A stretch of DNA of 64,000 nt. Origin: Nitrosopumilaceae archaeon. GTDB taxonomy: Archaea > Thermoproteota > Nitrososphaeria > Nitrososphaerales > Nitrosopumilaceae. Numbering within the stretch: the first letter of the stretch is position 1; each line of letters starts with the position of its first letter. The notes beneath the pieces were generated by a model. It was given only the letters and a program-made list of their open reading frames with translations. It did no database searches and was not told where the DNA came from. Location: positions 1 to 64,000 of the forward strand of contig CBDATR010000009.1 of NCBI GenBank assembly GCA_965200155.1. Direction: 5' to 3'. The position numbers and the translations under genes were made by a program. Shown in pieces: positions 2,902 to 44,839 of the stretch.

Positions 2902-3867
2902 TCAGTGTTTCAGTTGAATGATCACATCTAGTATAATCTCATCCCAGTAGTGGTTGCAATACTCTAGGCGTTCAAGGCCTGGTGGCTGTCTAGGGATGCA
3001 TTCTTCTTTTAGGCGTATGCTCTTCTCATCATTTATGATAAGATTCGTATCATTAAACCCCATACGTGCATAACGGCAGAATAACTCCCAGATCTCTTTT
3101 TCACCTATAGAATCATACTTGCACTTTTTCTTTAGTGTATCATGCATCTCATTCCATGTCAGTAACCACTCATCAGCTAGATTCCGTATGGGCTTGTGTT
3201 TCATATCCCACGCTGGGTAAACCTGGGTGGCCTCCATCTTGTAAAAACCATTCTTGTTTTGGAAAAGACCAGTTACCTCGACCTTACTACCTTTTTTGAC
3301 CCAGCGTGCCTTATCGTGTGGTGCACGTGCCCAGACAAAGTAACGTTCCCCTTTTATGCCTAGATTCTTGTATGCACCATTGTGTACATTTGTAACACTT
3401 CCATGTATGGTAATAATCTTCTGATCACGTAATTCACAATCAATAGGGAGACGAAAATCCGTACTCACATCCTTACCCAGTAATACTCTGAGTATGTTTG
3501 AAATCTCCCGGTATACTCGACAGGCCGTTGCATCATTATGTGACTTCAGTACTTTTTTCACATCCTTATATCGTATTGATATGATTCCGCGGTCCAGCCA
3601 TGGCCTGTACTTTTTTGCTATAATACCAGCTAGTGACAATGATTCGGTACTGGTGTTGGGTACCTGTGTCGGTTCAACGCCAAGCATATAGGCAACATCT
3701 TGTATTCCCTCTGACTGTTTTTTCTTGAATAGTCCCGTCTTTTTGCCATGTTGTATAAGTAGACCAATTGCGGCCCCTCTTGAACGTAAGGTACCATCTT
3801 GTTGTAATTCCTCTATGGCATCCATTTCTTCACATGTCAATGACACAGTGTATGTTATTCGTTTCAT
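2902..3867 (-). CDS. Hypothetical protein: RHH-like N-terminus plus MCM N-terminal/OB-fold-like region (paralog 1)
   Basis: Likely start MKRITYTVSLT at 3867, aligned with the paralog 2 start; shares LAGIIAKKYRPWLDRGII and WVKKG.xVEVxG with 4039..5034. Confidence 0.8.
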   Translation of the reverse strand: MKRITYTVSLTCEEMDAIEELQQDGTLRSRGAAIGLLIQHGKKTGLFKKKQSEGIQDVAYMLGVEPTQVPNTSTESLSLAGIIAKKYRPWLDRGIISIRYKDVKKVLKSHNDATACRVYREISNILRVLLGKDVSTDFRLPIDCELRDQKIITIHGSVTNVHNGAYKNLGIKGERYFVWARAPHDKARWVKKGSKVEVTGLFQNKNGFYKMEATQVYPAWDMKHKPIRNLADEWLLTWNEMHDTLKKKCKYDSIGEKEIWELFCRYARMGFNDTNLIINDEKSIRLKEECIPRQPPGLERLEYCNHYWDEIILDVIIQLKH

Positions 3868-4003
3868 GCCACAGCCGATTACCGCTCCCTTAAAAGTTAT
3901 TAAGAAAAATACAGATTTTACCGTTTTTTCACTTTTTTCATAGAGTTCTTTTTTTAGATCGTTTTTTTTTTTCATAATAATTATTTTTTGAACCGAATGC
4001 ACT
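3868..4003 (-). promoter_or_regulatory. Conserved ~135-bp AT-rich leader/promoter of paralog 1
   Basis: Near-identical to 5035-5170; differences are mostly in homopolymer lengths. Confidence 0.7.
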
Positions 4004-4038
4004 ACAATAGGCGTGTACACCTTGAATCTAAAAACAGT

Positions 4039-5034
4039 CTAATTGAGTATACCTTTTTCATACCGTGTCTTCTCGTCAAGGATTTCGGAGATATTTGGTA
4101 TTGAACGCCACAACTGGATACATTGTTCAAGACCGGCTGGGCCTGGTGGCTGGGTACACATGTTATGGTCTTTTAATAGTATTTTCTTGTTATCTTTTAC
4201 CTCAAACGAAATACTACTTTTCCCCATACGAGCATAGTTGGTAAATGCGCGAAATCGGTAGCCATCTTTGTAGTCGTTCAACATGTCTAGTACCTTCCGT
4301 ATCTCAGCACGTGTAAGTATCCACTCATCGGCGAGGTCTCGTATGGGTTGGTATTTGTCATGCCATTGAGTATCTATCTGGACGGCCTCTATCCTAAGTC
4401 GACCATTCCTTGTGTATAGTCGGCCTATAACCTCGACATCCATGCCCTTTTTGACCCAGTGTGCCTTGTTGTGAGGTATGCGAATCCATGGGATACAAAG
4501 CGGGCCATCAACACGGATATACTTGAATGCTCCATCTCTCTTTTGGTGTATATTGTGATGAATGTTCTTTACTGTACCATTCATTATAATGACTTCCTGA
4601 CCATGTAGGGAGTCATCAGTTGGTAATCTGTAATCTGTCTCTGGCTCCTTCTCAAGCAGTGCTTTGAATATTATAGGTATCTCCTGGTATACGGTCCATG
4701 CAATTGTGTCGTCATGTGATTCCAATACACCCATGACGTCAGGGTATCGTATTGGTATGATTCCGCGGTCCAGCCATGGTCTGTACTTTTTTGCTATAAT
4801 ACCAGCTAGTGACCATGATTCGGCACTGGTATATGGTGCTTGATCAGGTTTTACACCCAGTATGGAGGCTTGTAGTTCTTTATTTGGTCGTTTCAAATAG
4901 CCCACATCTTCCGCTATTTGGACTAGTTTTATCAAGACATCACCACGGGAACGCTTGTTGTGCTGTTCACGTATCATTTCAATGGAATCCATTGTCTCCT
5001 GTGGTGCAGAGAATGAGAATATTTTTCGCTTCAT
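4039..5034 (-). CDS. Hypothetical protein: RHH-like plus MCM-N/OB-like (paralog 2)
   Basis: 331-aa ORF; MKRKIFSFSAPQETMDSIEMIREQHNKRSRGDVLIKLV has a beta-helix-helix pattern; clear paralog of both neighbours. Confidence 0.85.
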   Translation of the reverse strand: MKRKIFSFSAPQETMDSIEMIREQHNKRSRGDVLIKLVQIAEDVGYLKRPNKELQASILGVKPDQAPYTSAESWSLAGIIAKKYRPWLDRGIIPIRYPDVMGVLESHDDTIAWTVYQEIPIIFKALLEKEPETDYRLPTDDSLHGQEVIIMNGTVKNIHHNIHQKRDGAFKYIRVDGPLCIPWIRIPHNKAHWVKKGMDVEVIGRLYTRNGRLRIEAVQIDTQWHDKYQPIRDLADEWILTRAEIRKVLDMLNDYKDGYRFRAFTNYARMGKSSISFEVKDNKKILLKDHNMCTQPPGPAGLEQCIQLWRSIPNISEILDEKTRYEKGILN

Positions 5035-5170
5035 GGCACAGCCGATTACCGTTCCCTTAAAAGTTATTAAGAAAAATACAGATTTTACCGTTTTTTCACT
5101 TTTTGCATAGAGTTCTTTTTTTTTCGATCGTTTTTTTATAATAATTATTTTTTTGAACCGAATGCACTAC
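5035..5170 (-). promoter_or_regulatory. Conserved ~135-bp AT-rich leader/promoter of paralog 2
   Basis: Direct repeat of 3868-4003. Confidence 0.7.
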
Positions 5171-5271
5171 GAATATGGATATTTCACCGGTTGCCTTGGT
5201 TCCTGTGAAACGCGCCATTCTGGGAACCGGCGCAAGAATCATTCAGTGCCATGTTAGCGGGCAGGAATGGT

Positions 5272-6015
5272 TTATCGCCCGGACTCATTCTCAACTACAT
5301 GCTCATAGATTAGTCGCAGGACATCCGGCCACTTGTGCGGCCTGTCTGCATTGGACTCATCATTACGTACATACTCCTGTGGTAGAGTTATGGAGTAGTC
5401 ATCTGTTATGAATAAACTGTTCTCGCCACTCTCCATGTCCCGGTACCGCTTGTACAGGCCGATACCGTCAACGGCGGGCATTGATAACATGATTTGATTT
5501 GTCATGTGTGATATTTCATCGATATACTCTGACCTGTCCAGTGTGATATGTATGACCTCGACATATGATTCATCCCTAACCGGACCTACAACTTCTACCC
5601 TATTCTTCCACTTGTTCCTCTCGTATCCTGGCGGTAATTTTACAGGTATGCTGGTTATGCCGTTATTCAGGAATGTGCCCTTCTTTATCACGCCGGTAAA
5701 GACGGCCAAAGCCTGGCCACTAAGGGAACGGTCCGGCGGGAACTCCTCTATTCTTATCCTCATGTCCCGCTCCAGTAACGTGTTGAATATTCGGGGTAGC
5801 TCCTTGTGGTAAATATCCCATGCCGCCTTGTCATTGTGTACTGACATGACCATGGCCACATCAGATATGTTAATGGGTATGAGCCCCAAATCCAGTTTTC
5901 GTAAATGCCTGTGCGCAATGAACTTTGCTAGAACACATGATGTTGTTGTCACGTGCTGAACTGGGCGGTGTGGCACGCCTAACTGCTTGGCTATCTCCTT
6001 TGTCAGAGAATCCAT
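5272..6015 (-). CDS. Hypothetical protein, divergent paralog 3 (MCM-N/OB-like, no RHH)
   Basis: LAKFIAHRHLRKLDLGLIPINISDV..HNDKAAW aligns with paralogs 1 and 2; start uncertain (6015 or 6039). Confidence 0.75.
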   Translation of the reverse strand: MDSLTKEIAKQLGVPHRPVQHVTTTSCVLAKFIAHRHLRKLDLGLIPINISDVAMVMSVHNDKAAWDIYHKELPRIFNTLLERDMRIRIEEFPPDRSLSGQALAVFTGVIKKGTFLNNGITSIPVKLPPGYERNKWKNRVEVVGPVRDESYVEVIHITLDRSEYIDEISHMTNQIMLSMPAVDGIGLYKRYRDMESGENSLFITDDYSITLPQEYVRNDESNADRPHKWPDVLRLIYEHVVENESGR

Positions 6016-6059
6016 GCCATAGAATAATGGTGATTCCATAAAAGGACGGTCATGGAGTG

Positions 6060-6680
6060 GTGGCTGTATCATATGGTTGATCAAGTTCCATGGTAACCAC
6101 ATGATCAAGAACCGCCGGCACGGCCGCTAGAACGGCTGATCAAGTCCCCTGGTGGCAGCATCAAGAACCCCCGGGTGGTGATCAAGTCCCATGGTAACCA
6201 CATGATCAAGAACCCCCGGCACGCTCAACAGTGACTGTCATATACTTGATCAGTCCGGTGGCTGCATCATATGATCAAGACCCTCCGGCTGGTGATCAAG
6301 CCCAGTCCGGTGGCTGCATCACATGATCAAGACCCTCCGGCTGGTGATCAAGTCCCATGGTAATCATACCAAGAACCCCCAGCACGCATGAATGATTCAC
6401 ATGTATCAGCGGCTCTGGCTTGGTGACCATATCACATGAACCCACGGTGGATGATCAGCCCCATGGTAACCACATGATCAAGAACCCCGGCTGGTGATCA
6501 AGCCCGGTGGCCACACTACATGATCAAGAACACCCGGCTGGTGATCAAGCCCAGTCCGGTTACAGCACCACATGATCAAGAACCCCCAGCTGGTGATCAA
6601 GCCCCCATGGCGGTCATGAGCAATCCATTCTGGGAGTGGTAATAGACAGGTATGGGACTCACGGGTCCTTCAGGTGAATA
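6060..6680. repeat. TGATCAAG-rich degenerate array 1 with conserved tail
   Basis: ~45-bp unit tgatcaagtcccatggtaaccacatgatcaagaacccccggctgg with variable inserts; tail ...tagacagg.atgg...gtccttcaggtgaata shared with array 2. Confidence 0.9.
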
Positions 6681-6919: not shown

Positions 6920-9900
6920 TTGGTTGTAACCTTTGATCAGGCACTAGAGAAGATACGAAAGGAGACCGATGATGAAACAGAAAAGGGCAGTTCTGTACAC
7001 AAGACACAGCGGGGTAACAAATTTGAGAGACTAATGTTACACTACTTTAAGAATGACAGCATATACAAGAATGAATTCAAGGATGTAAAATTATGGTATG
7101 ACTGGTTTCATGAACAAGATACCGGAATCGATTTAGTCGCGGAACAATATGACGGCAAGCTAGTTGGCATTCAGTGCAAATGTTGGAATGATGATTCCAG
7201 TATTGCCTTGAATGATATCTCAAACATGTTTGCCGTAAAGGAGAGCAAAAAGATGGATAGATTGATTCTAGTATTTACCGGGAAAGATGTAAGCAAGCAT
7301 ATTGAACAACAGGGTGGTGGCGCTTTTTCAATTATTATGAAATCTGATCTCCGTAGCAGCGCCTTTGACTGGGGCAAGAAAAGAATGATTTCAAAACCAA
7401 AGAAACTGAGACCACACCAAAAGGAAGCCGTTGACAAAGTCGTTACCGGGTTAAAGGATGCCGATAGGGGAACACTCACCATGGCATGTGGGACTGGCAA
7501 AACTATTACATCACTGCATATCGCCGAGAATATTGCCGGGAAAAATGGACTCATTCTATATTTGGTGCCATCCCTCTCACTAATCCCCCAAGTCATGAGG
7601 GAGTGGGCAGAGAATGGCTCCATCACTCATCAGTACATGGCGGTATGCTCAGATAGATCGGCCGGGAGTGATGAGCAGGGCTCCATAACAGAGATTCCCA
7701 TACAGCCGTCTACTGATGTTGATACCATTCTAGAACAATTACAGTCAATGAGGAATGGTATGCGTGTTATATTCTCCACGTATAACTCGGTGGAGCGAGT
7801 AGGGAAAGCCATTCGTGGTATGAATGAAATATTCGATTTAATACTATTCGATGAGGCTCATCGTACCACCGGCGCCGAGAAAATCAAGGAGTCATATTAT
7901 TTGACGGCCCACAAGGATAGTGAGGTTCCTGCTAGGAAGAGACTGTACATGACGGCGACACCGCGTGTATACTCTGGAAAGGGTAATAATGATGCAACTA
8001 CTCAAGGACTGGAAGTGTATTCCATGGATGACGTGGAGAAATATGGCGAGGTATTGTATGATTTACCATTCTCAAAAGCCGTTGACATTGGACTACTGAC
8101 ACATTTCAAGATTATAATGCCAGAGGTTAATGAGGACGACGCATATGGTGAAATCATAAAGGCCGCCAGGGATCAGGGCGGCGATGCCAAGGATTACGAG
8201 GATTTGGAGCTAGACTACATGACAAAAGTGTACAGTATTTGCAAGGCCATTACATATGATGATGACAAATTCCATCCACTACAAAGAGTAATGATATTCC
8301 ATAATACCATAAAGAAGTCAAGATTGTTCTCCGGTCATGGACGTAATATGGACAAGGCAAAGAAACAACTAAAATTGGACAAAACCACACAAAAAATACT
8401 CAGCTTTGATAATTTGAGTGAGAGATTACTAAAGACCGATTCCAATCTGGCTGGTTACAAGACTGTTACAAGACATGTAGACGGCTCCACCAATTCACTG
8501 AGTAGGGGAGAGCGAATAGACTGGTTAAGGAATAGTTCTCCAAAGGAGATTCGAATACTCAGTAATGCTCGGTGCCTGCAGGAAGGAGTGGATATTCCAG
8601 CTCTTGACGCCGTTATATTCATGGAGCCCAAGAACTCGCCCATTGACATTATACAAAGTATAGGGAGAGTGATGCGAAAATCTGATGGAAAAGAGTCAGG
8701 TTATGTCATTGTTCCCATTCCTGTACTAAAGGGTGATGATCCACATCATGTGTTGAAAATGAACAAGCGCTACAAGCAGATAAGCGAAATACTACGTGCC
8801 ATACTGTCACATGATGATGGCCTGCGACGGTTACTGAACATGTATGTCTTGGCCAAGTCAGGGAAGGGCGGTGACCATGTATCACCGGATCCGGGGGAAA
8901 TACCACCAAGACTACGGGACTGGATTGCTAGTACACTTGGAAAGGGACTCAGTGATAAACTATTAAAAGATGTGCAGAATGTCCTACTGAGTCTTGGTGA
9001 TCCCAGCTATCACTCCAACATGGGTGAGCGGTTAGGTGAGCAAGCCGTTATAATAGAGACCAAGCTTAACCAGCGTGTTAAAATAGAGCCGGAAACTGCG
9101 CCCATCATTAAAGTATTACACGAGAACCTGAAACCGATAGTAGGGCATACTCTTACTATGGAACAGACCATTCGAGCATTATCACAGCATGCCGTAATGT
9201 CCAGAGTGTTCAATGTAATGTTCCCCAGGAATGATAACCCGGTGGCATCTGCATTCGATGATACCATAGAACGATTAAACATACAAGAGTCATTAAAAAA
9301 ATTTGAGGCATTCTATGCTGGTATACAGGCGGATATTGAACGATTCGAGGAGCCGGATGCTAAGCAGGATTTCTTGCGGGCCATCTATGACTCGTTCTTC
9401 CGTGGTTCAGACAGAAAGGCCGCTGATAAACATGGAATAGTCCATACGCCGGTTGAAATCGTTAACTTCATACTGGAATCAGTTCGACATGTACTAGAAT
9501 CGGAGTTCGGAAAAACATTCAATGATAGAATGGTAAAGGTGCTGGACCCGTTCACAGGTACTGGTATATTCATAGCTCAATTGATTGAGCGTGGTATGAT
9601 AGACGCACTCCGTGACAAGTACCAGAATGATATTTACGCGAATGAGGTAATGTTACCGGCATTCTATGTGGCCATGTCCAATATCGAGGCATCATACCAG
9701 AAAATGACGGGTGAATACACACCATTTCAAGGTATATCGTACATGGATACATTCGCACAGCACCCCTCATACAGGCTGGACTCTGAATTCCGGCAAAAAC
9801 AGACTAGAATCACAGATGATAACCTAGAGGAAGCCATGGAAAGAGTGAAACGGCAGAATATGGATTACGTCAATGTTATAGTGGGAAATCCACCATATTC

Positions 9901-11077
9901 TGGTGGGCAGGAGACAGCCAGTGAAGACAACAAGAATGATTCCCACCCTGCACTTGAGACTCGCATAAAGAACACCTATACGAGTAAGGCGCGTAACGTT
10001 GGCTTCAAGGGAGCCATACTGAACCCAAATAACTCATACATCAAGGCCATTCGTTGGGCATCAGACAGAATCGGGGAATCGGGAGTAATTGGTATTATAA
10101 CACCCTCTGGTTTCATTACCGGGAATAGTGAAGCTGGCATACGCGCCTGTCTTGAAATGGAGTTCACTGATGTGTACTGCTTTGACTTACTAGGCGAGAA
10201 GGGTAGGACAGGTCACGGACGTAACATATTCGAGTACAAGGGTGAGAGTACGGGTGGTACTACAGTTGGTACAGCTATTACCATTCTTGTGAAAAATCAG
10301 GACAAGCAGGGTTGTACCATACGATATTCAAAACTGCAAGAGTCCGACTATTCTGGTGAGGATAAACGGAAACGTGTGAAAGAGTTAGGTTCCATTGCAG
10401 GAATGGAATGGGAGATTATAACACCGGATCGATTCCATGACTGGTTAGAACAGCGTGGTGATACCAGTGAACGATGGGATTCCATCACTCCAATGGGAAG
10501 TAAGGAGGGAAAACGTGGGAAGACCAATGATGTAATGTTTGGAATGTATTCCAGAGGAGTGATAACAAGTAGAGATGATTGGGTATACAACGCATCGCCC
10601 CAAGACCTGGAAGAGAATATGAGACGTACAATAGAGTATTGCTCCAAGCAGGACCTAGATCACTTTGACACAAACGAGAAGGATGTAGCATGGACCCCCA
10701 TAATGGAGAAGAAGATAAGAGATAACGGAAATCCTGAGTTTAATCGGTCCAATATTAGGATATCACTGTATCGTCCATTCATCAAACAATACCTATACTT
10801 GGATTCAACCTTCGTTGAACACGAATATCATATCCCCTCATTCTACCCACACCCAGACTCCAAGAATAATTCTATTATGGTGCCTGACAAGATCAAGGGT
10901 GAGTTCTCCACCATTATAACTGATATCACGCCTGACCTTCACATCCATGAGGCATCCCAGTGCTTTCCCATGAGAGCCAAGAAACAAAAGGACAAGAATA
11001 GACATGTGGTAGGTAGCCAGTCAGCCAGTCAGCCAGTCAGCCAGTCAGCCAGTCAGCCATCGAGAACCTGGCGATAA
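6920..11077 (+). CDS. Type ISP (LlaBIII/LlaGI-like) restriction-modification enzyme: Mrr-type nuclease, SF2 helicase, N6-adenine MTase, start of TRD
   Basis: DTGIDLV..IQCK nuclease motif; MACGTGKT, DEAH and QSIGRVMR helicase motifs; LDPFTGTG and GNPPY MTase motifs; YRPF and PDLH..QCFP TRD motifs. Confidence 0.92.
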   Translation: MVVTFDQALEKIRKETDDETEKGSSVHKTQRGNKFERLMLHYFKNDSIYKNEFKDVKLWYDWFHEQDTGIDLVAEQYDGKLVGIQCKCWNDDSSIALNDISNMFAVKESKKMDRLILVFTGKDVSKHIEQQGGGAFSIIMKSDLRSSAFDWGKKRMISKPKKLRPHQKEAVDKVVTGLKDADRGTLTMACGTGKTITSLHIAENIAGKNGLILYLVPSLSLIPQVMREWAENGSITHQYMAVCSDRSAGSDEQGSITEIPIQPSTDVDTILEQLQSMRNGMRVIFSTYNSVERVGKAIRGMNEIFDLILFDEAHRTTGAEKIKESYYLTAHKDSEVPARKRLYMTATPRVYSGKGNNDATTQGLEVYSMDDVEKYGEVLYDLPFSKAVDIGLLTHFKIIMPEVNEDDAYGEIIKAARDQGGDAKDYEDLELDYMTKVYSICKAITYDDDKFHPLQRVMIFHNTIKKSRLFSGHGRNMDKAKKQLKLDKTTQKILSFDNLSERLLKTDSNLAGYKTVTRHVDGSTNSLSRGERIDWLRNSSPKEIRILSNARCLQEGVDIPALDAVIFMEPKNSPIDIIQSIGRVMRKSDGKESGYVIVPIPVLKGDDPHHVLKMNKRYKQISEILRAILSHDDGLRRLLNMYVLAKSGKGGDHVSPDPGEIPPRLRDWIASTLGKGLSDKLLKDVQNVLLSLGDPSYHSNMGERLGEQAVIIETKLNQRVKIEPETAPIIKVLHENLKPIVGHTLTMEQTIRALSQHAVMSRVFNVMFPRNDNPVASAFDDTIERLNIQESLKKFEAFYAGIQADIERFEEPDAKQDFLRAIYDSFFRGSDRKAADKHGIVHTPVEIVNFILESVRHVLESEFGKTFNDRMVKVLDPFTGTGIFIAQLIERGMIDALRDKYQNDIYANEVMLPAFYVAMSNIEASYQKMTGEYTPFQGISYMDTFAQHPSYRLDSEFRQKQTRITDDNLEEAMERVKRQNMDYVNVIVGNPPYSGGQETASEDNKNDSHPALETRIKNTYTSKARNVGFKGAILNPNNSYIKAIRWASDRIGESGVIGIITPSGFITGNSEAGIRACLEMEFTDVYCFDLLGEKGRTGHGRNIFEYKGESTGGTTVGTAITILVKNQDKQGCTIRYSKLQESDYSGEDKRKRVKELGSIAGMEWEIITPDRFHDWLEQRGDTSERWDSITPMGSKEGKRGKTNDVMFGMYSRGVITSRDDWVYNASPQDLEENMRRTIEYCSKQDLDHFDTNEKDVAWTPIMEKKIRDNGNPEFNRSNIRISLYRPFIKQYLYLDSTFVEHEYHIPSFYPHPDSKNNSIMVPDKIKGEFSTIITDITPDLHIHEASQCFPMRAKKQKDKNRHVVGSQSASQPVSQSASQPSRTWR
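11015..11058 (+). repeat. Simple sequence repeat (AGCCAGTC)5 AGCC
   Basis: Read directly; the ORF stops 19 nt after the repeat. Confidence 0.97.
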
Positions 11078-11198
11078 TAGTCCCGGACAAGATCAAGGGC
11101 GAATTCTCAGTATTCATAACGGGAATAACACCGGATCTGGAAGTGGTGCATCACGGGCAGGTATTCCCCATGTTCACACAGTCACCGGAGGTGACGAG

Positions 11199-11861
11199 AT
11201 GAAGGACAACATCACCGACTATTCCCTGGAACTATACCAGAAACGATATAATGATGACTCCATAACCAAGGAGGACATCTTCTACTATACCTATGGCATC
11301 CTACATCATAATGGTTATCGTTCCAAGTATCAAGCATTCCTTGTTAGAGGATTGCCGAATATTCCCATGGCGCCTGACTTCCATGGAATCATGAGAGCAG
11401 GCCGAGAACTAGCTGACTTGCACCTGAACTATGAGACGTGCCCCCGTTATGACTTGGGTGAGCCACTTCACTCCATACCTGATCACCCACGAAGTATTAG
11501 ATTTGGTAGGAAACCAAATAGAACCGGTTCCCCGGGCCCCAAGAATGTACCGGATCCGTCAACCATCATAATAGATGGTCAAAAGATATACGATAACATA
11601 CCATTAATCAATTACAAAGTGAATGGCCGCACACCTGTAGGATGGTTAACCTTCATACCAAAGAAGGCAAAGAGTGGGATAGATAGGTACCCATTCAGGG
11701 TTTTTACAGGAGAACAGATCCGAGCCATGCTGGAACGACTAGTACATGTCGGTCTAGAATCCGATAGGATCATAGCCAACCTCCCAACTGAATTCGAGAT
11801 GGATGATATCAAGACAGAACCAACCGGTCTGGACAAGTACTACAAGGCGCCTATTCCCTAG
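11199..11861 (+). CDS. Type ISP C-terminal specificity-domain protein (separate ORF)
   Basis: DNITD..ITKEDIFYYTYGILH...G.ELA.LHL.YE...Y.VNGR; preceded by SD GGAGGTGA at 11187-11194. Confidence 0.9.
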   Translation: MKDNITDYSLELYQKRYNDDSITKEDIFYYTYGILHHNGYRSKYQAFLVRGLPNIPMAPDFHGIMRAGRELADLHLNYETCPRYDLGEPLHSIPDHPRSIRFGRKPNRTGSPGPKNVPDPSTIIIDGQKIYDNIPLINYKVNGRTPVGWLTFIPKKAKSGIDRYPFRVFTGEQIRAMLERLVHVGLESDRIIANLPTEFEMDDIKTEPTGLDKYYKAPIP

Positions 11862-12049: not shown

Positions 12050-12780
12050 CCACTAGGACGGCTGATCAGTCCCATGGTGGCCATACCACATGATCAAGAA
12101 CACCCGGCTGTTGATCAAGCCCCATGGTGATCGTATCAATAACACCCGGCACGTATGAATGATTCACATGCATCAGCAGCCCTGGCTTGGTAACCATGCC
12201 AAGAACACTCGGCATATGGTTGATCAGCCTCATGGTAACCATACCAAGAACACCCGGTTGATCAGCCCGGTAACCATATCAAGAACACCCGGTTGTTGAT
12301 CAAGTCCCATGGTGGCAGCATCACATGATCAAGAACCCCCGGCATATGGTTGATCAAGTCCCATGGTAATCACATGATCAAGAACACCCGGCTGTTGATC
12401 AAGTCCCATGGTGGCCATATCAAGAACACCCGGCACGCTCAACAGTGACTGTCATATCCTTGATCAGCCCAGTGACCATATCAAGAACACCCGGCTGTTG
12501 ATCAAGTCCCATGGTAACCACATGATCAAGAACCCCCGGCACGGACACGAACTCATACGTGTAAAATCCACCGTAACAGGTGGCCATACCACATGATCAA
12601 GAACCCCCGGCACGGACACGAGGACGAACCCCCGGTGGCTGATCAGTCCAGTGACCATAACAAGAACCCCCGATTGATCAAGTCCCACTAGAAAGGCGGT
12701 TAATCAAGCCCCATGGCGGTCATGCGCAAGTCACTCCAGGAGTAGACAGGCATGGAACTTGCCAGTCCTTCAGGTGAATA
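12050..12780. repeat. TGATCAAG-rich degenerate array 2 with conserved tail
   Basis: Same unit, inserts and tail as 6060-6680, in the same orientation. Confidence 0.9.
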
Positions 12781-12839: not shown

Positions 12840-14400
12840 GTGACTGAGCAGTTCAACCATATATCACCAAGCGAGTTCTTTTACCGGAATCGTGACTTGG
12901 CAGGTTTCAGTAACCCTACCCGCTCATTATACACGGCGGTAAGAGAATTTGTGGAAAACTCGCTGGATGCATGTGATCACTGCAATACTGCCTGATATCA
13001 CTCTTGAGATAAAGCCTGTTAATGAGCAACAGGATACGCGACCATACTACCTGACGATACATGATAACGGGCCGGGCATCACGATCATGTACCATTAGCG
13101 TTTGGAACAGTCCTGTATGGCTCAAAGTTTGGACTAAAACAGGCTCGCGGCATGTTCGGCCTCGGAGCTACAATGGCCATTTTGTACGGCCAGATTACCA
13201 CCAATAACCCAGTCCATGTCTCCAGTAGTGTAGACGGGAAACACGTAGGAATTCAACATATTACTAAACATGCAAAAGAACAATACTGGACCATACTAGA
13301 ATGGAGACGGATCACCGGGGATTATCTGTCCGTATCAGCCTTGATGGCGACTACTCCAAGGCCGGATCAAAATTACGTGACTACATATATCAGACCTCCC
13401 TCATTACACCTTACGTTACCATAACCTTTGATCCCAAGGGGAATCAGTATCGTTATGAGAGAATAATTAATTCAATGCCGCCCTCACCTACCATTACTCC
13501 CCCACGGCGTGGATGTGGAGACAATTCGCCGCATGGCATCAGAGTCCATTACCATCATTCCATGACTATACAAAAGCCTGGGAAAAACAGAACACAAGTG
13601 AGAGAACCATTCCTACATAATACCAAGCATGACACAACAAGGTGTATACATTATACTGATCCAAGGCCACAATCAGTCAAAATCAATGAGCCGCATCATT
13701 CCCATCTCATATCAGTTGGTGAGCCACTACTCTCATTCCTTACAAAACGATTCCAGCGAGTAACAAGACGGCCCGCTCATTCCTGTATTTCGCCGGACTG
13801 AGTCATGATTTACGTATCGGCACGCTAACGAATCAAGTGAAACTCAGTGATTCACTCCATGTGTATGATCAATTCATGGCGCCTGACCCGTCATGTCTGG
13901 CCCCGTTGGGCGCAGAGCCACTATGAAGTTCTTTAACCCGGACTTTCAGTAGTCCAAAGGAATGCCTCGGCATACTCTGGATTCCCATTCATATTATAGA
14001 CATTCCGTATGGCGGTGAAATAGAGAGAGGAATCAAGGCACATCGTTTTGCCAATAGAATCCAATTACTATATGATGAAGGTAGTGACGTTGTCCTCAAA
14101 GTGGTACACGAGATTGACTGGAACCGCTACAAAGTCAAGAACGAGTCACCACTAGTGATAGTTTCACATATCTGTTCCACCAGAATCCCCTACAAGACGA
14201 TAGTAAAGGAGAACGTCGTGGACAGAATGGAGATTGAGAGAGATCAGGCAATTCCTGTTACGGCGACTATCCTCATACATGACAAAGCGGGGCAAGGCAG
14301 CCGTAGCCAAGAAGCGTACCTCATTATACAAAAAGTATATGCCAATAGTGGCCCAGTTCTGTACCGAGCTGGCAGGCAAAAAGAGCCAACTCTAGTATGT
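12840..14400 (+). pseudogene. top6B: DNA topoisomerase VI subunit B pseudogene
   Basis: ISPSEFFYRNRDLAGFSNPTRSLYTAVREFVENSLDACD; RFANRIxLLYDEGSDV; VSHICSTRIPYKT; multiple frameshifts and deletions. Confidence 0.93.
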
Positions 14401-14409
14401 TGGAGGTCA

Positions 14410-15405
14410 AGCCATAAAAAAAGCAGGCAGACATTTTAGAACTGCTACAGAACTATGACGCCCGCATATACCATGACATGAGCCAGGACCGGTTCCCCTC
14501 ATTCGAGATTCCCAGCCGTTCTGTAAGTAATATCATAAGTTACGGCAGTACATACTGGGAAATAATGCATCCACCAGAAGCTCCAAGAATACCTCACAGT
14601 TGCGCTCCTCGCAATTGATGTGGCTCGCATTCTTTGCTAACCGTTTAACGAAAAAATCATCCACTCTACGAGATATGTATCATTCATCACAAGCGTTCGC
14701 AATCGACTTTGAGGATCAGGCAGAGAGCGATAATATCATAGTTGATTTAGAAGCGGTTCTAGCTAGACCACGTGAGAGTATGCACATATTCCTGGAGGAG
14801 CGGAGTTCAATTTTCGGTAATCTTGATATCGAGTATACCGTTCCCTGTTACGAGGGCAAGAGAATGAATCTCTCCAATCACCCTGACGGGTATGCCATAG
14901 GCCCTAGCCTGACCAGCTGGTCAGTACTGACGCTAATATCACCATTATCATAGAGAAGGGTGGTTTATTCACAAGATTCGTAAAAGAACAAGTAGATAAA
15001 AAATTCAAGGCCATCATAGTGGATACCGGCGGCCAGGCTCCCCGCTCTACTAGAACCTAAGACGATTACATGAGGAATTATCATTACCGGTTATCATACT
15101 GACCAATGGTGACGTGTATGGTGAGCATATTGCCATGGTGATCAAGTTCAGCGAATGTAGCTCACTTGCGAGAGTTAACCGTTCCTGATGCCAAATGGGT
15201 CGGAGTCTGGGCTACTGACATAGAGCGATATGACTTGCCGACCATTCCCATGACACAGTCAGATATCAAGCGGTGCCATGACTTACTCAAGGACCCGCGG
15301 TACCGTTCCGGCATATGGAAGGAGCTAGAGGTATTCTCAAAGTATGGGCTGATATTACATACAAATACTTGCCACACAAGATTGAACTGGCAAGGAGTCT
15401 ATAAT
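14410..15405 (+). pseudogene. top6A: DNA topoisomerase VI subunit A pseudogene
   Basis: STLRDMYHSSQAFAIDFEDQAESDNIIVDLE; GGQAPRSTR; WVGVWATDIERY; several frameshifts. Confidence 0.92.
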
Positions 15406-15804
15406 GATATTGACCGAGGATAAAATCAAGTTCTTTGGTGAGTTCCATACTAGATAACGACTAGAGTGATGCGCCATTTTTGGGAAGGGTCGGTCTATGT
15501 AACATGTCGCTCATTGAATATCACTCCATATTCCTTCCAATGGGCAGTTCCAGGGAATGCTGTAATGGAACATATACCGTTCTGTCATATGCGTAACAAT
15601 TCTTACAACCACTAGAAACCCCTGGTGCAAATGCTGGTTCCCCTACCTGCCAAGGGGAATCATACGTTGGTGTGACCGGTCCATGTTATACTGGTTCCCC
15701 AGTACAAGAGGCACGGCCGTTCAGTACAAGAGCGGTCATTGATGTGTAGTGTGTATTTTTACCGTAAAATGTGATAACCCAATTACGTCTATCATAACAT
15801 CATT

Positions 15805-18186
15805 ATGGCAATGAAAAGTATAACCATTGGTGCAATACTGGCATTGCTAGTTGTACCAGTATCATATGCACAGTCCAATACGGATCTAATCCGTGACGTA
15901 GCCGGAGACACTAATGATATCCTTGAAATCGTGGACGTTCTAGCACGGGACATTAGCTCCTTACAAGGTAATATTGATCGTTCCCTTGGTGATTTCAGAC
16001 TACTACTCATTGAGCTGAACGAGAAGCTGGCAACCATTGACGTGGACGCGATAACCACACTAGAGCAGGACATTGAACAGAATACAGAATCACTGGACAG
16101 AATAGAGAATGCCATACTGGGAACAGTCTGTGGTACCGGAACGACTATCATAAATGACGTTTGTATGCCTGACATTCAAGTATGTGATGGCGAGATGTAT
16201 AATGGCACCTGTATGGCCAATCTCACCTGTGGTGAGGGGACTATTCTACACGTTGACACCTGCATAGCTGATGTCTCCATATCATACTGTGGTGATGGGA
16301 CCATTTTCAGTGGCGGAAAATGTATAGATGATGACTTCAGATATCTAGAACAAGGGGAAATCCTTGGCTCAAACTTCTATGTTGAGGATGGTAATACCAT
16401 TATGGTGGACGGTGAACAGTATGAATTGGCATTTGTAATGTCACCTGAACTGGATGAGGCCGGTGGCCGTGATGTCGTTCGTTACCTGAATGATCTTTGC
16501 GAGGGTGCTACCATATCAGTACTGCCTGACTCCCGTTCAAACAGTGGTGTCATAACCTGTGATGGTGTTGACATTTCAGAGAACCTAATAGAGGAGAACA
16601 TGGCATCATTCAATGATAAGGACTGCGCAATTCGTGACTTTGTAGATGTTACATGGGCGCTTGATTACTGTTCTGTCCCACCACAAATCAATACCCGCGT
16701 AGTACCGGGAATCATAACCCTGGATTTTATCAACCCCGTCCATGATACGCTAATCGATAACTACATACAGGAACAGTGTCGCACCGGCATACAGGAAACC
16801 CCTGCGGGGCTAATCTGTAACGGAGTGAACGTAGAAGAGTACCTGGTGAATACTGGCCTTGCAACGCCCAGTGAGCTAGCCTGTGATGTAATGGTCCCAT
16901 GGGCCATTTGTGAGGAAGAGCTGCCCGACATTTACATACAGGACGGGAACGTAATACAGGCCGGTGAAACACTACATGACCTAGCATTCATTACATCACC
17001 AGGATTGAATGAGTCAGGCGGACGGGAAGCTGCACGTTACCTTGATGATATATGCGGCAATGTTGCCAGCATTTCATTTGATATAGCAGCCGGAAAATCA
17101 CTGGTAGACTGTAATGGCGTGGATGCATCATTAAGTATGATCGTTTCAGGACATGGTGAGTTTGACGATAATGACTGCTCAATACGCGAGTTCATTGACG
17201 TTCTATGGACAGAGCAATACTGCTCCATAAACATGATAGAGCCTGTGCCGGAGACACCAGATGAAACACCAAAACGTGTTGATGGATTAGTATCACAACT
17301 AACACCATACAGGATAACAGTAGGTCACATTCTAGGATGGGAGACAAATCCCAGCGGCCAGCCTGAAACTACAATCACCATATCCTGCCTATTCCCACAC
17401 TATCCTAGCTTTATAGATGCCGCCCCCATACAGAATGGTGGAGTCTATGATATCAACCTGTTAGAGACGGATATAATGAATGACTATGGAACTGCCATTA
17501 TGGTAAATAATCCCATTATACCACAGCCCATTCTATTCGATGAACGTTTACACGTTTCCAACGATAGAGTGATTGTGTATAACCCCGGTCCTACAACCAT
17601 GGACAAGGTACTATTCGATGAGGAATATAAGATAGATGTCATTCTGGAAGGATGGGAGAATGCAGTATTTGCGGACCCGGAGAACCCGACAGCAGCCGAG
17701 AGAGAGGAAATCATATTCGTAATCAGACACGAGATACTATCCCAGTACGAGAATAATGAATGCTCTGTGAACTTACCTGTTCAAGACCAGGAAAATCAGC
17801 GCAAAATTATCGGCATTGCCGGTAGTGAGAGAACGGGTGCATTGACAGCAAATGTAATTCCATGGGATGCAACATGCTCAGAAACTGTAACTATTACCAG
17901 TGTCATTTCAAATCCTACAGCCGCATACTTTGACGGTTTCAACTATGTATCATTCACAGATATGGACAGTGATCCTGACACAACCATTCCTGTAACCATA
18001 AGTAATTCTGGTGATACCAACCCGGTAACTACAGCAGGGCTGGCATTCAGGAGTAACAATTTCACTATAGGTGAGAATAACGTACTAGCATCCGGTGAAC
18101 GAGTGAACCCGACCGGTCTGGCCATTATAGGAGTGGACTATCTGGCATCAGGTGATGACACCTGTACCTGGACACAGCGTGAGTAA
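15805..18186 (+). CDS. Secreted acidic surface protein with coiled coil, CGxGT Cys repeats and degenerate thermonuclease (SNase)-like repeats
   Basis: Signal peptide; CGTGT/CGEGT/CGDGT; two copies of DGN.I....ELAF..SP.L.E.GG..A..YL..LC plus a partial copy. Confidence 0.8.
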   Translation: MAMKSITIGAILALLVVPVSYAQSNTDLIRDVAGDTNDILEIVDVLARDISSLQGNIDRSLGDFRLLLIELNEKLATIDVDAITTLEQDIEQNTESLDRIENAILGTVCGTGTTIINDVCMPDIQVCDGEMYNGTCMANLTCGEGTILHVDTCIADVSISYCGDGTIFSGGKCIDDDFRYLEQGEILGSNFYVEDGNTIMVDGEQYELAFVMSPELDEAGGRDVVRYLNDLCEGATISVLPDSRSNSGVITCDGVDISENLIEENMASFNDKDCAIRDFVDVTWALDYCSVPPQINTRVVPGIITLDFINPVHDTLIDNYIQEQCRTGIQETPAGLICNGVNVEEYLVNTGLATPSELACDVMVPWAICEEELPDIYIQDGNVIQAGETLHDLAFITSPGLNESGGREAARYLDDICGNVASISFDIAAGKSLVDCNGVDASLSMIVSGHGEFDDNDCSIREFIDVLWTEQYCSINMIEPVPETPDETPKRVDGLVSQLTPYRITVGHILGWETNPSGQPETTITISCLFPHYPSFIDAAPIQNGGVYDINLLETDIMNDYGTAIMVNNPIIPQPILFDERLHVSNDRVIVYNPGPTTMDKVLFDEEYKIDVILEGWENAVFADPENPTAAEREEIIFVIRHEILSQYENNECSVNLPVQDQENQRKIIGIAGSERTGALTANVIPWDATCSETVTITSVISNPTAAYFDGFNYVSFTDMDSDPDTTIPVTISNSGDTNPVTTAGLAFRSNNFTIGENNVLASGERVNPTGLAIIGVDYLASGDDTCTWTQRE

Positions 18187-20128: not shown

Positions 20129-21256
20129 TTTATGTTATAATATGATTATAATATAAATGTCATGTCATGGAATTATACGATAGTCATAAATAGTATGGAG
20201 TAATCAACGGCCATCTGACACTCATATTTAATCGCGTTATGATGGTTTTACTATTCTCTACATTCCAGAAGCCTGGTATGAGTTCACGTGATTAGAAACA
20301 GTCTGGTAGAATAGACCTTATGCGCATGATTGACATCAGGTCGCTCCAAATTGGGGTGGAATGATACCAAGCGTGTGTTACAACCTGATTTTGCTTGAGC
20401 GACCTATATGGATTCATTGAACTGGAATAGCAGTCCCCTTGTTTGTGCAGCCCGGATACTACAATCCGGAATTCATCACGACTACTATCTAGCATGCGGA
20501 TGACATGCTCGATTAATATGCGCGGATATATTTCCTCGTGAGTGATTCTCCGCCTTTGCTCCGGTTAACATTCCATGGTATCTTGTAACTGCTAGGCGTG
20601 GTTGATTTACCCCCACCTGCCGCCAAGGGGAATCGTGTGTTTTCAATCTTGTTTGCTCCCTGATTTCTCTCGGGACGCTGAACATGTATTCTTCAGCCTG
20701 GAACATACTGACTTGATCTATATTACAATGGTATATGTTGGATCATACCCCGCCTTGTAAACTGCATTTGAGTATCACTACCAGCAGCTCCTGTTTTGTA
20801 TTGCGGCGGCAGAAGAGCAGATGCCAAATGGTGTTCACGATCATTTGTAAGATCTAGGAATGCGACACCCCAGAGATTCTACATATTCCTTGAATCTGGC
20901 CAATATTCCGGAGAGCATCTGATCAGCGAATCCGTGCATTCTATGATATTCACTTCAAGTTTGGTGTGCAGGCTTACTTTAACCGTCAATATGAACTTAA
21001 ATCATCCAAATCTAGCCACTGCTCTCCGCTATTCCACATGTACCATGAATTGTTCCCAGGCATAATTGGCCCTGGACTGGAATAGTAGTAGCCCCTCATT
21101 GGGCTACTCTGTAACCCCCTCATTGGGCGGGAATGGTCGCCCCTTTATTTACCGCACCCAATTGGAATCATTCCCGCTCACTGCTACCGCACATTCTAGC
21201 TGGCATTAATTCCGTTATGTGTACTCTGTCGGGACAGGATATACGCCAGCCTTTCT

Positions 21257-21496
21257 GGTTGGACGGCTAGAACAATTTCGTGGCTATGCCACCCCATGGT
21301 TGGACGGCTAGAACAATTTCGTGGCTATGCCACCCCATGGTTGGACGGCTAGAACAATTTCGTGGCTATGCCATCCCGTGGTTGGGCGGCTAGAACAATT
21401 TCATGGCTATGCCATCCCGTGGTTGGGCGGCTAGAACAATTTCATGGCTATGCCATCCCGTGGTTGGGCGGCTAGAACAGACCCGTGGCTATGCCG
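21257..21496. repeat. Tandem 41-bp repeat, ~6 copies
   Basis: Unit ggttggacggctagaacaatttcgtggctatgccaccccat, no spacers. Confidence 0.95.
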
Positions 21497-40740: not shown

Positions 40741-41358
40741 ATGGATCCGCTCTACGACATTATCGAGTACTCATACGCGGGAATAATGCTAGTACTAGTA
40801 GCCCTGAATGCGGCCCCCCTTTTGGTGCCGCCCACATGGATAGTACTGGCATCATTTTACGCGGTGGATTCATCCCTGAGTCCGCTGTGGCTGTCCATAG
40901 TGGGTGCAACAGGGGCCACCATTGGCAGGTTCATACTCATGAAGTATAGCGGCATATTCCGCAGGTTCGTGGGAACCCAGAGGCGGGAGGGTCTGGATAC
41001 AGTGGGGAGTCTTCTTGGGAAAAATCGTTACAATTACGCGCTTGCATCCTTTCTCTTTGCTGCCACCCCACTGCCCAGCAATATGCTGTTTGTGGCATAT
41101 GGATTGATGCGGGCCAAGAATTTTGGACTGTTGGTCGGGTTCTGGTCCGGCCGTGTCATATCATATTATATCATGATATCCATTAGTAATGTAGTACTTG
41201 TTCCATTTCTACAGTTATTCGAGGAGAGGTACGTGGGCATTCTTGTGGCAGACGTATTGGGCGTGGGAACGGTAATACTCTTTGCATGTATTGACTGGGG
41301 TGTACTAGTAAGGCAGCGCCGTCTGCGGTTCATGCGGCCCCGTATATGGCGACTATAA
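40741..41358 (+). CDS. Membrane protein (DedA/VTT-like)
   Basis: Hydrophobic; GATGATIGR, FAATPLPSN. Confidence 0.75.
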   Translation: MDPLYDIIEYSYAGIMLVLVALNAAPLLVPPTWIVLASFYAVDSSLSPLWLSIVGATGATIGRFILMKYSGIFRRFVGTQRREGLDTVGSLLGKNRYNYALASFLFAATPLPSNMLFVAYGLMRAKNFGLLVGFWSGRVISYYIMISISNVVLVPFLQLFEERYVGILVADVLGVGTVILFACIDWGVLVRQRRLRFMRPRIWRL

Positions 41359-42244
41359 CAGGAATCACAAAGCCCATTACCAAAAGGGTACCCGATATTC
41401 TGGAATACAGTAATGTTCTATGCATGTAGAATAATAATCTGTCATTGACAGAATGGTATATGGCCAGTCCCCGGCCACCCTGAACTACAAGGGGTAGCGC
41501 CATGAGTGACATGATACAGTATGCAGGGAAGAAACCACCCAGTACCCCGATACACACCACTACAAAGAAGCCTGCGGGGAACAGCCAGTACAATCGGGCT
41601 GCAGATTCTGGCCCATACCGGACTATAATGCCCCCTCGTCCGCCAGCCTTGTCCGCCTTGTAGTCGGGGAATGATGCCACAAATAATACCAGTGATGATA
41701 GAATACCCGCGGCCATTCCCGCCAGTATGGCACTCTCTGTAATTGTGCCTGCCTGTGTGTAGTAGGTACCCAAAACAATCATGATTCCCTTGATGGCCAC
41801 CATAATCTCTCCCAAGCCCCAGTCCACTATCTTTGTGGAGTAGAAATAGATTGACACTACGGCAAATCCCAGCAGTATACCCACAACAATCCCGTGAGTC
41901 ACGATATAGTATGCCCCTATGGCGCTGCCGGTAATCAGGCATATTACACCGGCCTTGTAGACCGATTCCGGGCGTAGCAGGCCCTCGGGCAATACGCCGG
42001 TGCCGCCGCTCATACCTGTGCGATCAGTGTTATCATCTATTCCGCGCTTGTAGTCCCGGTAGTCATTCAGCAAGTCCACGCTTGCGTGTAGCATTACGAC
42101 ACCGCAAGCCACAAGGAACATGTCCGGTATGTTGAGTGCAGAATTCAGGTATGCCGCGACCGCACCACCCAAAGTCACGCTTATGACCGATGATAGCAGG
42201 AATCGTATACGTACAGCTCTTAGCCATATTCTAACCGATGCCAA
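41330..42244 (-). CDS. menA: UbiA-family prenyltransferase (MenA-like)
   Basis: WLRAVR, NDYRDYKRGID, GLGE, PDYKADKAGG; likely TTG start at 42244. Confidence 0.85.
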   Translation of the reverse strand: MASVRIWLRAVRIRFLLSSVISVTLGGAVAAYLNSALNIPDMFLVACGVVMLHASVDLLNDYRDYKRGIDDNTDRTGMSGGTGVLPEGLLRPESVYKAGVICLITGSAIGAYYIVTHGIVVGILLGFAVVSIYFYSTKIVDWGLGEIMVAIKGIMIVLGTYYTQAGTITESAILAGMAAGILSSLVLFVASFPDYKADKAGGRGGIIVRYGPESAARLYWLFPAGFFVVVCIGVLGGFFPAYCIMSLMALPLVVQGGRGLAIYHSVNDRLLFYMHRTLLYSRISGTLLVMGFVIPVIVAIYGAA

Positions 42245-42371
42245 GTACGTACTATAGTGGCGTGGTTGGGACTCATATCTTTTTGTGATGTAGGATACTA
42301 TAGGTCTAGTAGAATGTGTCTTCTTTCGTAATGGAATTGTTCTTGCAGATGGTCTGGTATAGTTTCGGCGC

Positions 42372-42545
42372 CTAGTCGGTGATGTTGTCCTTCGTGGAAT
42401 TACCACCTCCCGTTCTTGTACAAACATCTGGAATGCCTGCCCATGATGTACGACCCCCAGATACGGCATTATTTCCGTTATGAAGACCGAGAACTCGCCC
42501 CTTATTGTCCTGTACTATTATTGCCAGGCTCTCGACTGCTGATCG
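42372..42545 (-). pseudogene. Orphan copy of the Type ISP second specificity segment and downstream ORF start
   Basis: ESLAIIVQD/KGEFSVFITEIMPYLGVVHHGQAFQMF + GGAGGTG + KDNITD matches 11062-11221. Confidence 0.85.
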
Positions 42546-42562
42546 TAAGGACCTCAGTGTTT

Positions 42563-42663
42563 GTATGAGTTCACGTCTTCCGGAATCTTGTGCACAAATC
42601 ACATTAACTAGAACAACCTGTTCCATCAGTTGTGCGTAAATTTAGACACAGGTGAACTCATAC
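42563..42663. mobile_element. MITE family 1 (101 bp), no TSD
   Basis: TIRs; lies between two truncated relics. Confidence 0.95.
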
Positions 42664-44443: not shown

Positions 44444-44839
44444 CTTTCCATTAGCGGCGGAATCTAGTCGGACCATAGTGACCTGCACGTCCAGAGTATG
44501 AGAGTACGCTGGATCTTTCCATTAGCGGCGGAATCTAGTCGGACCATAGTGACCTGCACGTCCAGAGTATGAGAGTACGCTGGATCTTTCCATTAGCGGC
44601 GGAATCTAGTCGGACCATAGTGACCTGCACGTCCAGAGTATGAGAGTACGCTGGATCTTTCCATTAGCGGCGGAATCTAGTCTGACCATAGTGACCTGCA
44701 CGTCCAGAGTATGAGAGTACGCTGGATCTTTCCATTAGCGGCGGAATCTAGTCTGACCATAGTAATCTGGTAACTATGGTAGCTTCCCACTTGAACCGCA
44801 ATGTCCATTAGCGGCGGAATCTAGTCTGACCATAGTAAT
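44444..44839. CRISPR. CRISPR-like mini-array: six ~36-bp repeats, a 35-bp spacer x4 and a 37-bp spacer x1; no cas genes in the window
   Basis: Core tccattagcggcggaatctagtc(g/t)gaccatagt at 44447, 44518, 44589, 44660, 44731 and 44804. Confidence 0.55.

Follow-up and report, generated by a model that had tools for sequence, protein, structure and literature searches.

The window analysed here, a stretch of 64,000 nucleotides on contig C9 of the 51-contig, 2.38-Mb genome (87.6% complete) of a sponge-associated, ammonia-oxidising Nitrosopumilaceae archaeon, carries a Type ISP restriction-modification (R-M) gene in which a simple sequence repeat (SSR) is embedded in the part encoding the target recognition domain (TRD). 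The evidence assembled below makes it fairly probable, in our view, that the repeat is an evolved contingency switch working in three frames, which would give a fused, active enzyme (state X), a split enzyme that includes a second version of a DNA-reading segment (state Y) or a truncated, inactive enzyme (state Z). Within the DNA-recognition domain, the repeat is flanked by two versions of a base-reading loop, and the DNA downstream of it is constrained in two frames.

All elements of the junction are on the forward strand. The large open reading frame (ORF1; 6920–11077, 1385 aa) contains segment A (10865–10972), whose 36 codons encode a beta-hairpin and Loop VI of the TRD. A lysine-rich linker that is conserved among paralogues (10973–11014) leads from A to the repeat, (AGCCAGTC)5 followed by AGCCA (11015–11059), and the stop codon of the present frame lies shortly beyond (11075–11077). 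Tandem Repeats Finder (TRF) describes the repeat as 5.6 copies of the 8-nt unit AGCCAGTC with 100% matches; the unit length is not a multiple of three and the tract is free of stops in all three frames. Segment B, a diverged duplicate of A, consists of 36 codons (11065–11172) with a tail and a TGA (11065–11202 altogether), in frame +1 relative to that of the second open reading frame (ORF2, hereafter the C part; 11199–11861, 220 aa). B can be read from 11062, and its TGA (11200–11202) overlaps the ATG of ORF2 at 11199 to form ATGA. The Shine–Dalgarno-like motif GGAGGTGA (11187–11194) ends 4 nt before this ATG and is complementary to the 3' end of the 16S rRNA of the same genome, GATCACCTCC. 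The two segments have the 14-mer GACAAGATCAAGGG in common (10886–10899 in A, 11086–11099 in B). A, B and the C part occupy three different frames, and the ORF2 frame, which ends at 11861, is open as far back as 11013, across B and the repeat; read in this frame, the DNA of segment B encodes an open, low-complexity linker.

The number of repeat units determines which of these frames follows A. With the five units present in the assembly (state Z), ORF1 terminates at 11077. The loss of one unit or the gain of two (n = 4 or 7; state Y) joins A to B, and translation then ends at the ATGA. The gain of one unit or the loss of two (n = 6 or 3; state X) leads from A through the alternative frame of B into the C part as one chain. 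A previous sequence-only reading of this DNA had described the repeat, segment A, the diverged out-of-frame segment B, the TGA/ATG overlap, the Shine–Dalgarno-like motif and the shared motif, and the TRF and ORF coordinates agree with it in all these respects; its statement that losing one 8-bp unit, or gaining two, brings B into frame is likewise borne out by the frames. The third state, with A and C fused across the open alternative frame, had escaped it.

By its Pfam domains and the predicted fold of its family, the window gene is a Type ISP enzyme, and the proposal that such an enzyme occurs here in an archaeon holds, its host being a member of the Nitrosopumilaceae. ORF1 retains the Type ISP domain order (nuclease, ATPase, coupler, methyltransferase and TRD): the Pfam matches are Mrr_cat_2 (aa 44–154, E = 6.3e-22), ResIII (161–349, 1.5e-23) and Helicase_C (487–587, 4.2e-11) for the Mrr nuclease and the SF2 ATPase, ISP_coupler (712–810, 2.3e-06), N6_Mtase (815–1011, 2.5e-05) for the N6-adenine methyltransferase (MTase), and Type_ISP_C (1206–1358, 3e-30) for the first half of the TRD. 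The translation contains the catalytic motifs GTGKT (Walker A), FDEAH (DEAH) and GNPPY (the NPPY of MTase motif IV). ORF1 covers only positions 2–157 of the 342-position Type_ISP_C profile and thus stops in the middle of the TRD; the C part, which encodes the remaining TRD core and the guide subdomain, covers positions 167–310 (E = 9.6e-32) and aligns by phmmer to residues 1384–1576 of LlaBIII and 824–1027 of DrdV. Segment B weakly matches positions 111–156. In the window the enzyme is therefore not one uninterrupted polypeptide, as the frame ends at 11077 and the last 220 residues form a separate ORF. Natural single-chain versions with other repeat numbers are found at two paralogous loci, C42 and C43:97407.

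The duplicated module can be placed on the known structures. Segment A aligns by phmmer to LlaBIII 1332–1363. In the passages of PMC4872093 on which, together with sequence alignment, our mapping is based, the TRD reads bases by Loops IV, V and VI, with Loop VI corresponding to LlaGI 1365–1374; LlaGI H1368 and LlaBIII N1360 are equivalent residues that recognise the base at target position +3, its partner base is read by LlaGI G1372 and Q1373, the hairpin 1347–1358 is structural and the guide subdomain reads no bases. LlaBIII N1360 pairs with the residue that follows a conserved Pro-Asp-Leu (PDL), which is His in A and Glu in B, and the residues after it align to LlaGI G1372 and Q1373 of the same passages. 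When A and B were compared within each of 13 loci, the hairpin and Pro-Asp positions were identical in 13/13, the N1360-equivalent residue was identical in none (0/13) and positions across the loop in 0–5 of the 13. The residue equivalent to N1360 is His, Glu, Gln or Asn in every segment listed. This pattern of identity, together with the alignment, indicates that the duplicated module consists of the hairpin and Loop VI, and that its two copies differ at the DNA-reading site. The differences fall on the base-reading loop and not away from the DNA, the outcome that the sequence-only reading had named as contrary to it. From this we infer that specificity may change between the states.

Selection appears to act on segment B and also on the frame that runs through it. 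In the 18 B segments whose offset from the C frame is +1, the pooled ratio of non-synonymous to synonymous variation (pN/pS) is 0.29 in the frame of B itself, 1.98 in the C (ORF2) frame and 1.70 in the third frame, and the column entropy at the three codon positions of B is 0.49, 0.28 and 1.10; segment A has a pN/pS of 0.35 in its own frame. The low ratio in its own frame argues that B is maintained as a protein. At none of the 18 loci does the C frame across B contain a stop, and the third frame has 3–5 stops per locus. When the B protein was re-encoded with random synonymous codons following genome usage, the C frame was open in a mean fraction of 0.12, and the difference between 18/18 and this expectation of about 12% suggests that the read-through used by state X is also maintained. 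At 17 of the 18 loci the stop of B and the Met codon of the C part share the sequence ATGA, and at the other one they overlap as TGATG. Among the single-segment homologues with a findable motif at this place (43 of 68 rows), none has Met at that position (0/43), Arg being the commonest residue. At most loci the ATG of the C part has a GGTGA-like motif before it. Such stop-start features suggest that the C part is made by coupled re-initiation once B has been translated, which would make state Y functional. The argument for setting state Z apart from X is that selection holds the read-through frame open, and the argument for setting it apart from Y is that selection keeps the B protein and the ATGA. 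The peptides encoded by the repeats are all hydrophilic (mean Kyte-Doolittle -0.6 to -4.0, against -0.23 for random stop-free units), which suits a flexible linker.

The window gene belongs to a family within its genome. Fourteen C-domain loci are present, nine of which have the A, repeat and B layout; among 200 Nitrosopumilaceae genomes searched, 22 were positive, and no other of these has more than 4 C-domain loci. The repeat AGCCAGTC occurs with the same upstream flank at four further loci, with 5, 5, 5 and 6 units (x5 at C34, C22:26006 and C24:11747, as in C9, and x6 at C42), and the remaining loci of this layout have other units at the same place: AACCAGTC x6 at C43:97407, AGTCCACC x7 at C10, ACTCACC x9 at C24:240842 and GA x10 at C43:57996. 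Perfect repeats at least 24 nt long number 28 in the whole genome; 10 of them have units of 4–9 nt, and 8 of these 10 lie at the A|B junction of paralogous Type ISP genes; the position of the AGCCAGTC repeat is far from chance. One near-identical pair of contigs reveals a difference in repeat number. The C42 locus is identical to that of C34 over C42 4380–8509 (4.1 kb) except for a single 8-nt unit; the 16 substitutions all fall past 8510, close to where the contig ends. The five units of C34 put it in state Z, and C42, with its six, is in state X and has one open frame from A to the C end.

The stretch containing the gene was found in public runs labelled as sponge metagenome or with a coded organism name (7 rows, 2 studies), and among named genomes the loci most like it are those of Nitrosopumilus and Nitrosopumilaceae metagenome-assembled genomes (MAGs). 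An exact search of metagenome contigs for the repeat with its upstream flank gave no matches. The contigs from four of the public runs leave 11016–11059 uncovered and have loose ends at 10908 and 11120, which resemble sequences of paralogues that share words with the window rather than variants of the window locus.

Genomes of the same genus and family, several of them complete, share the layout of A, repeat, B and C part with different units: AGACTCC x10 and x17, ATCCGCA x9, GA x14 and x26, AG x20, an 11-nt unit and a 5-nt unit. Across all loci the unit at the junction is 2, 5, 7, 8 or 11 nt long. The recurrence of the layout in complete, single-contig genomes of relatives rules out an assembly artefact. 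The 11-nt unit, in a Nitrosopumilus MAG (L038:2301–2890), extends over at least 590 nt directly before B and encodes an identical 11-residue peptide in all three frames.

This diversity of repeats bears on the idea that several products could be made from a single allele by programmed ribosomal frameshifting at or near the repeat. Three overlapping conserved frames and a stop-start overlap occur at recoding sites too, and B is still retained at loci that lack a repeat and are locked in state X. However, long perfect repeats with units of 2–11 nt are substrates for DNA slippage and not known slippery heptamers, the units differ wholly between loci while their position is kept, and C42 and C34 provide a natural difference of one unit in the DNA itself. 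We therefore regard frameshifting as highly improbable.

Outside these genomes the gene looks ordinary. Other genera of Nitrosopumilaceae have uninterrupted genes of 1444–1679 aa with one segment in frame. Outside the family, 147 loci were surveyed with hidden Markov models, of which 14 were dropped for having too little upstream DNA; one segment was found in 126 of the 133 evaluable loci, two in 2 and none in 5, and no repeat was detected at the A|B site in any of the 133. A metagenome scan with the C-part alignment gave only distant homologues (at most 44% identity), which served as outgroup only. One of the two exceptions with two segments, in a Dehalococcoidia MAG (L048:2500–3100; C part 40% identical), has A, B and C in three frames and a short (CA)5 between A and B; it could have arisen independently or by transfer of the same design. 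Two other arrangements were observed. A locus with three Loop VI modules (L040:838–1320, the same as L122) keeps A in the frame of C and then has two B cassettes, both out of frame and unlike in loop type; a stop separates the two cassettes and no start follows the stop of the first. In genome G004, two Type ISP 3' parts lie about 5 kb apart on opposite strands (L018/L140, C1:2088397–2092145, +; L024, C1:2082149–2085246, -) and share an identical upstream protein stretch. One of them consists of A and an out-of-frame B, the other of a single B-like segment in frame, and the pair could represent an inversion-type switch of the C-terminal part.

Neutral decay would account for the duplication, the repeat and the frame changes as scars in a family that is becoming pseudogenes in an insertion sequence (IS)-rich, host-restricted genome. 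The genome is indeed full of IS copies, several family members are fragmented or carry stops, most loci are outside the fused frame in the assembly, and a solitary B–C fragment lies elsewhere in the window (42283–42626). Nevertheless, selection is visible in both overlapping frames, the ATGA overlap is conserved and the same architecture recurs with at least 9 different repeat units across species, complete genomes included; among the 133 evaluable homologues beyond the family, a single segment is the rule and the repeat is absent. In addition, five two-segment loci have retained ORF1 bodies of 1364–1493 aa; the ORF of 1493 aa, with a separate C ORF, is that of C24:240842, a natural state-Y locus. 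Decay is real for some copies, yet it fails to explain these constraints, and as a general explanation it is very improbable. The sequence-only reading had considered the split to be evolved rather than decayed and had suggested looking among homologues for segment A, an SSR, segment B and the ATGA in this order. Paralogues and related species have this layout, with differing units and with B under purifying selection in its own frame, which speaks for the former view.

The fused form, state X, looks like the main ON state, to judge from the frames in which the loci are found. Among 15 SSR-bearing loci with readable frames, 4 are in X, 4 in Y and 7 in Z, and all five two-segment loci of relatives that have no repeat are in X. 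It is this locking of the repeat-less loci (5/5) that suggests X as the working form. The hypergeometric probability of such a split of X is 126/15504 = 0.008, although the loci are not independent.

Structure predictions cover the fused state X and the two ORFs of state Z. The C-terminal 667 residues of the C43:97407 copy, a natural state-X chain, were folded by AlphaFold2 on an alignment of 68 homologues; the model has a mean predicted local distance difference test score (pLDDT) of 83.8 and a predicted template modelling score (pTM) of 0.83. Segment A (residues 332–367) is predicted with mean pLDDT of 85–97 in blocks of 10 residues over 331–370, residues 376–441, comprising the linker, the repeat peptide and B in its alternative frame, fall below 50, and the C part is confident again from residue 446. 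The best PDB matches of the model are LlaGI (5FFJ), LlaBIII (4XQK) and DrdV (7LO5), with TMq of 0.69–0.72 and E of 1e-43 to 1e-34, and the model of this paralogue in state X has the MTase–TRD clamp fold of LlaGI and LlaBIII, with core, jaw and guide. For state Z, residues 829–1385 of ORF1 and the 220-aa ORF2, a pair that the sequence-only reading had singled out for modelling, are predicted to dock, with an interface score (ipSAE) of 0.91 against 0.32 for the best of three controls; the mark applied to this score is reached by 58 of 80 solved complexes and by 2 of 110 mismatched pairs. Agreement of contacts between the runs was at least 88%, the pLDDT of the partner was at least 85, and the interface on ORF1 consists mostly of segment A (residues 488–527 of the modelled piece). 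The two chains are halves of a domain that has been solved as one chain; the high score may reflect likeness to the single-chain structures of LlaGI, LlaBIII and DrdV and is no proof of binding in the cell. The earlier picture of a two-polypeptide enzyme that toggles between states is partly supported. The layout, the selection on B, the Loop VI differences and the predicted docking speak for it, and it falls short in missing the third, fused state; the change of repeat number that it calls for is seen in the one contig pair C42/C34, and the change of specificity is putative.

The mechanism that we propose would have started with the tandem duplication of a TRD module, the hairpin with Loop VI, whose two copies came to be split by a hypermutable repeat. 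Slippage by one unit, not being a multiple of three, would shift translation among the three frames. In state X, the enzyme would be a full-length single chain using the Loop VI of A, the DNA of B being read as a disordered linker, and would be ON. In state Y, A and B would be translated in the frame of B up to the TGA and the C part would be made by coupled re-initiation, giving an enzyme of two chains with the alternative Loop VI of B and probably a changed reading of the target. In state Z, the one assembled here, ORF1 would end just past the repeat and the enzyme would probably be off or weak. The layout and its conservation, the selection on both overlapping frames, the one natural difference between n = 5 and n = 6 and the placing of A and B on Loop VI are observed; the rate of switching, the activity of each state and the use of B in state Y are what we infer. 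The weakest step is the supposition that B rather than A would be used in state Y and would change the target; accordingly, a full three-position selector, with Loop VI of A in the fused enzyme, Loop VI of B reading a different base in the two-chain enzyme, and an off position, is put forward only as a tentative possibility.

The principal competing explanation is that the repeat is a plain ON/OFF device, with X on and both Y and Z off, and that B, never used through the repeat, is a silent, spare Loop VI cassette sitting out of frame behind the expressed copy, into whose place gene conversion or a deletion joining A and B would bring it. Such movement has a parallel in the silent cassettes of pilin or vls genes. 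Several loci look as this explanation would have them. All repeat-less loci are locked in X and still have an intact B, and the first of the two B cassettes of L040 is stopped without a following start. At C22:28831, there is a single hybrid segment, with an A-like start and a B-like loop, in frame with C, as expected from the recombination between A and B that the sequence-only reading had envisaged. Nor are the loop types tied to one position: EV(V/I)HHG is found in B at most loci and in A at L037 and L039, whose B has the HILEAN type. Furthermore, cassettes that are tested whenever they are expressed would likewise show low pN/pS. A silent cassette has, however, no need of the overlap of TGA and Met found at 18/18 loci, of a Met that is absent from 43/43 single-segment homologues or of a Shine–Dalgarno-like motif. 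Positions 2, 5, 16 and 33 differ between A and B at 13/13 loci, these lineage-specific residues implying that conversion of whole segments is rare, and at C22:26006 and C24:11747 B is continuous with C, so that the only productive frame holds A and B together. We consider the silent cassette with a plain ON/OFF repeat rather unlikely as the sole explanation, and cassette recombination and frame switching may both operate.

Several observations weigh against the three-frame contingency switch that we favour. The repeat-less, X-locked loci that keep an intact B and the two cassettes of L040 split by a stop are better suited to a silent-cassette role than to expression of B in state Y. The difference in repeat number is known from the one contig pair C42/C34, and C42 may instead have arisen from C34 by recent duplication. 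At four of the five AGCCAGTC loci of the assembly the tract has five units, a length that is short for a high rate of slippage. Among the loci of this assembly whose body is complete, none is in state X: C42 runs off its contig, and the N-terminal body of the C43 copy is fragmented. Several members of the family are clearly broken, with fragmentation or stops, so that some decay is in progress. Finally, the loci are linked by descent and gene conversion, and their counts overstate their independence.

Repeat-driven phase variation of R-M systems is regarded as a trait of host-adapted bacteria. The contingency switch proposed here would follow the same logic in an archaeal sponge symbiont, in another type of enzyme, in many copies and with a more elaborate design. 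LlaGI and LlaBIII (5FFJ, 4XQK), encoded by Lactococcus plasmids, have the same domain order, a gamma-class N6-adenine MTase and the same MTase–TRD fold, and the duplicated module corresponds to their TRD hairpin and base-reading Loop VI. These bacterial enzymes are single chains without internal repeat, duplicated loop module or overlapping frames, whereas here the TRD is interrupted and dual-coded in about nine apparently switchable copies in an archaeon. Of the known mechanisms, the closest is that of the Type I system NgoAV of Neisseria gonorrhoeae, in which, as outlined in PMC9577141, a polyG tract toggles between a split hsdS1 and a fused hsdS1-hsdS2 and the recognised sequence changes. 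The two systems share a repeat at the end of a specificity frame that toggles between split and fused forms. NgoAV is a single locus with a separate HsdS subunit, and is not known to have a duplicated loop, a dual-coded stretch or an ATGA re-start; the change of specificity known for NgoAV is for the present enzyme deduced from its loops. In the phasevarions of host-adapted bacteria (PMC7383803 and PMC11868660), SSRs control Type III mod and Type I hsd genes. They likewise involve non-triplet hypermutable repeats in MTase genes of host-associated organisms and stochastic changes of frame; they have one ON and two OFF frames and are bacterial, mostly from pathogens, whereas here two of the three frames are apparently selected and the repeat is inside the TRD of an archaeal sponge symbiont.

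Two other bacterial systems resemble the present one in part. In Helicobacter canadensis, SSRs near the 3' end of genes are reported to switch the translated C-terminal sequence (PMC2823697), so that here too repeats change the C-terminal sequence and do not only turn the gene off; they are homopolymeric tracts in unrelated genes that are not known to have a duplicated functional module. The recombination and inversion shufflons of Type I hsdS (PMC7394358 and PMC7672463) also keep duplicated, diverged specificity modules beside the expressed one, and the population samples several targets; they act by recombination between inverted or direct copies, in contrast to the choice of frame at a repeat proposed here. 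For Type ISP genes of H. pylori, a passage of PMC3936762 states that the frameshifts are "not due to sequence repeats".

A literature search of titles and abstract starts found no phase-variable Type ISP enzyme and no SSR phase variation in Nitrosopumilus, and the titles and abstract starts of the papers on sponge Thaumarchaeota that it returned did not treat R-M. If the three-position selector is real, neither archaea nor Type ISP enzymes would have had a repeat-driven system of phase variation described before, and about nine loci could let a clonal population of archaeal symbionts sample thousands of combinations of defence and methylome. If the states differ in target, the switch would be a compact natural way of re-aiming a restriction enzyme, a task described in PMC4872093 as hard for protein engineers. 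It would then also bear on how symbionts diversify their defence without extra genes under the phage load of a filter-feeding host.

The surroundings of the gene in the window give no hint of an operon partner: the neighbouring ORFs (2902–6108 and 13301–18186) matched no Pfam family. Two related arrays of 49–52-bp tandem repeats, detected by TRF at 6138–6611 and 12218–12434, bracket the gene in direct orientation, with 76–80% identity between the upstream array and 12087–12540. Such arrays also adjoin the Type ISP copies on contig C22, and they may be recombination substrates for the spread or exchange of these genes. Three further tandem arrays in the window, at 21256–21495, 51848–52168 and 44444–44763, comprise two related 41-bp arrays (5.9 and 7.8 copies, 95–98% matches) and one 71-bp array (4.5 copies, 99%).

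The solitary relic at 42283–42626 is on the reverse strand and comprises B with the opening codons of the C part, and the frame of this B enters the start of a 379-aa membrane-protein-like ORF (41330–42469). Another paralogue, at C24:483265–487215, has in-frame TAG codons in its body (1 and 2 in two matched pieces) and a repeat shrunk to about one unit, and is probably a dead copy. The genome as a whole is unusually rich in IS: a 1.7-kb element found at C42:2315–3988 and many other sites is present in dozens of copies with 88–98% identity, and further repeated elements of about 0.5–0.75 kb occur.

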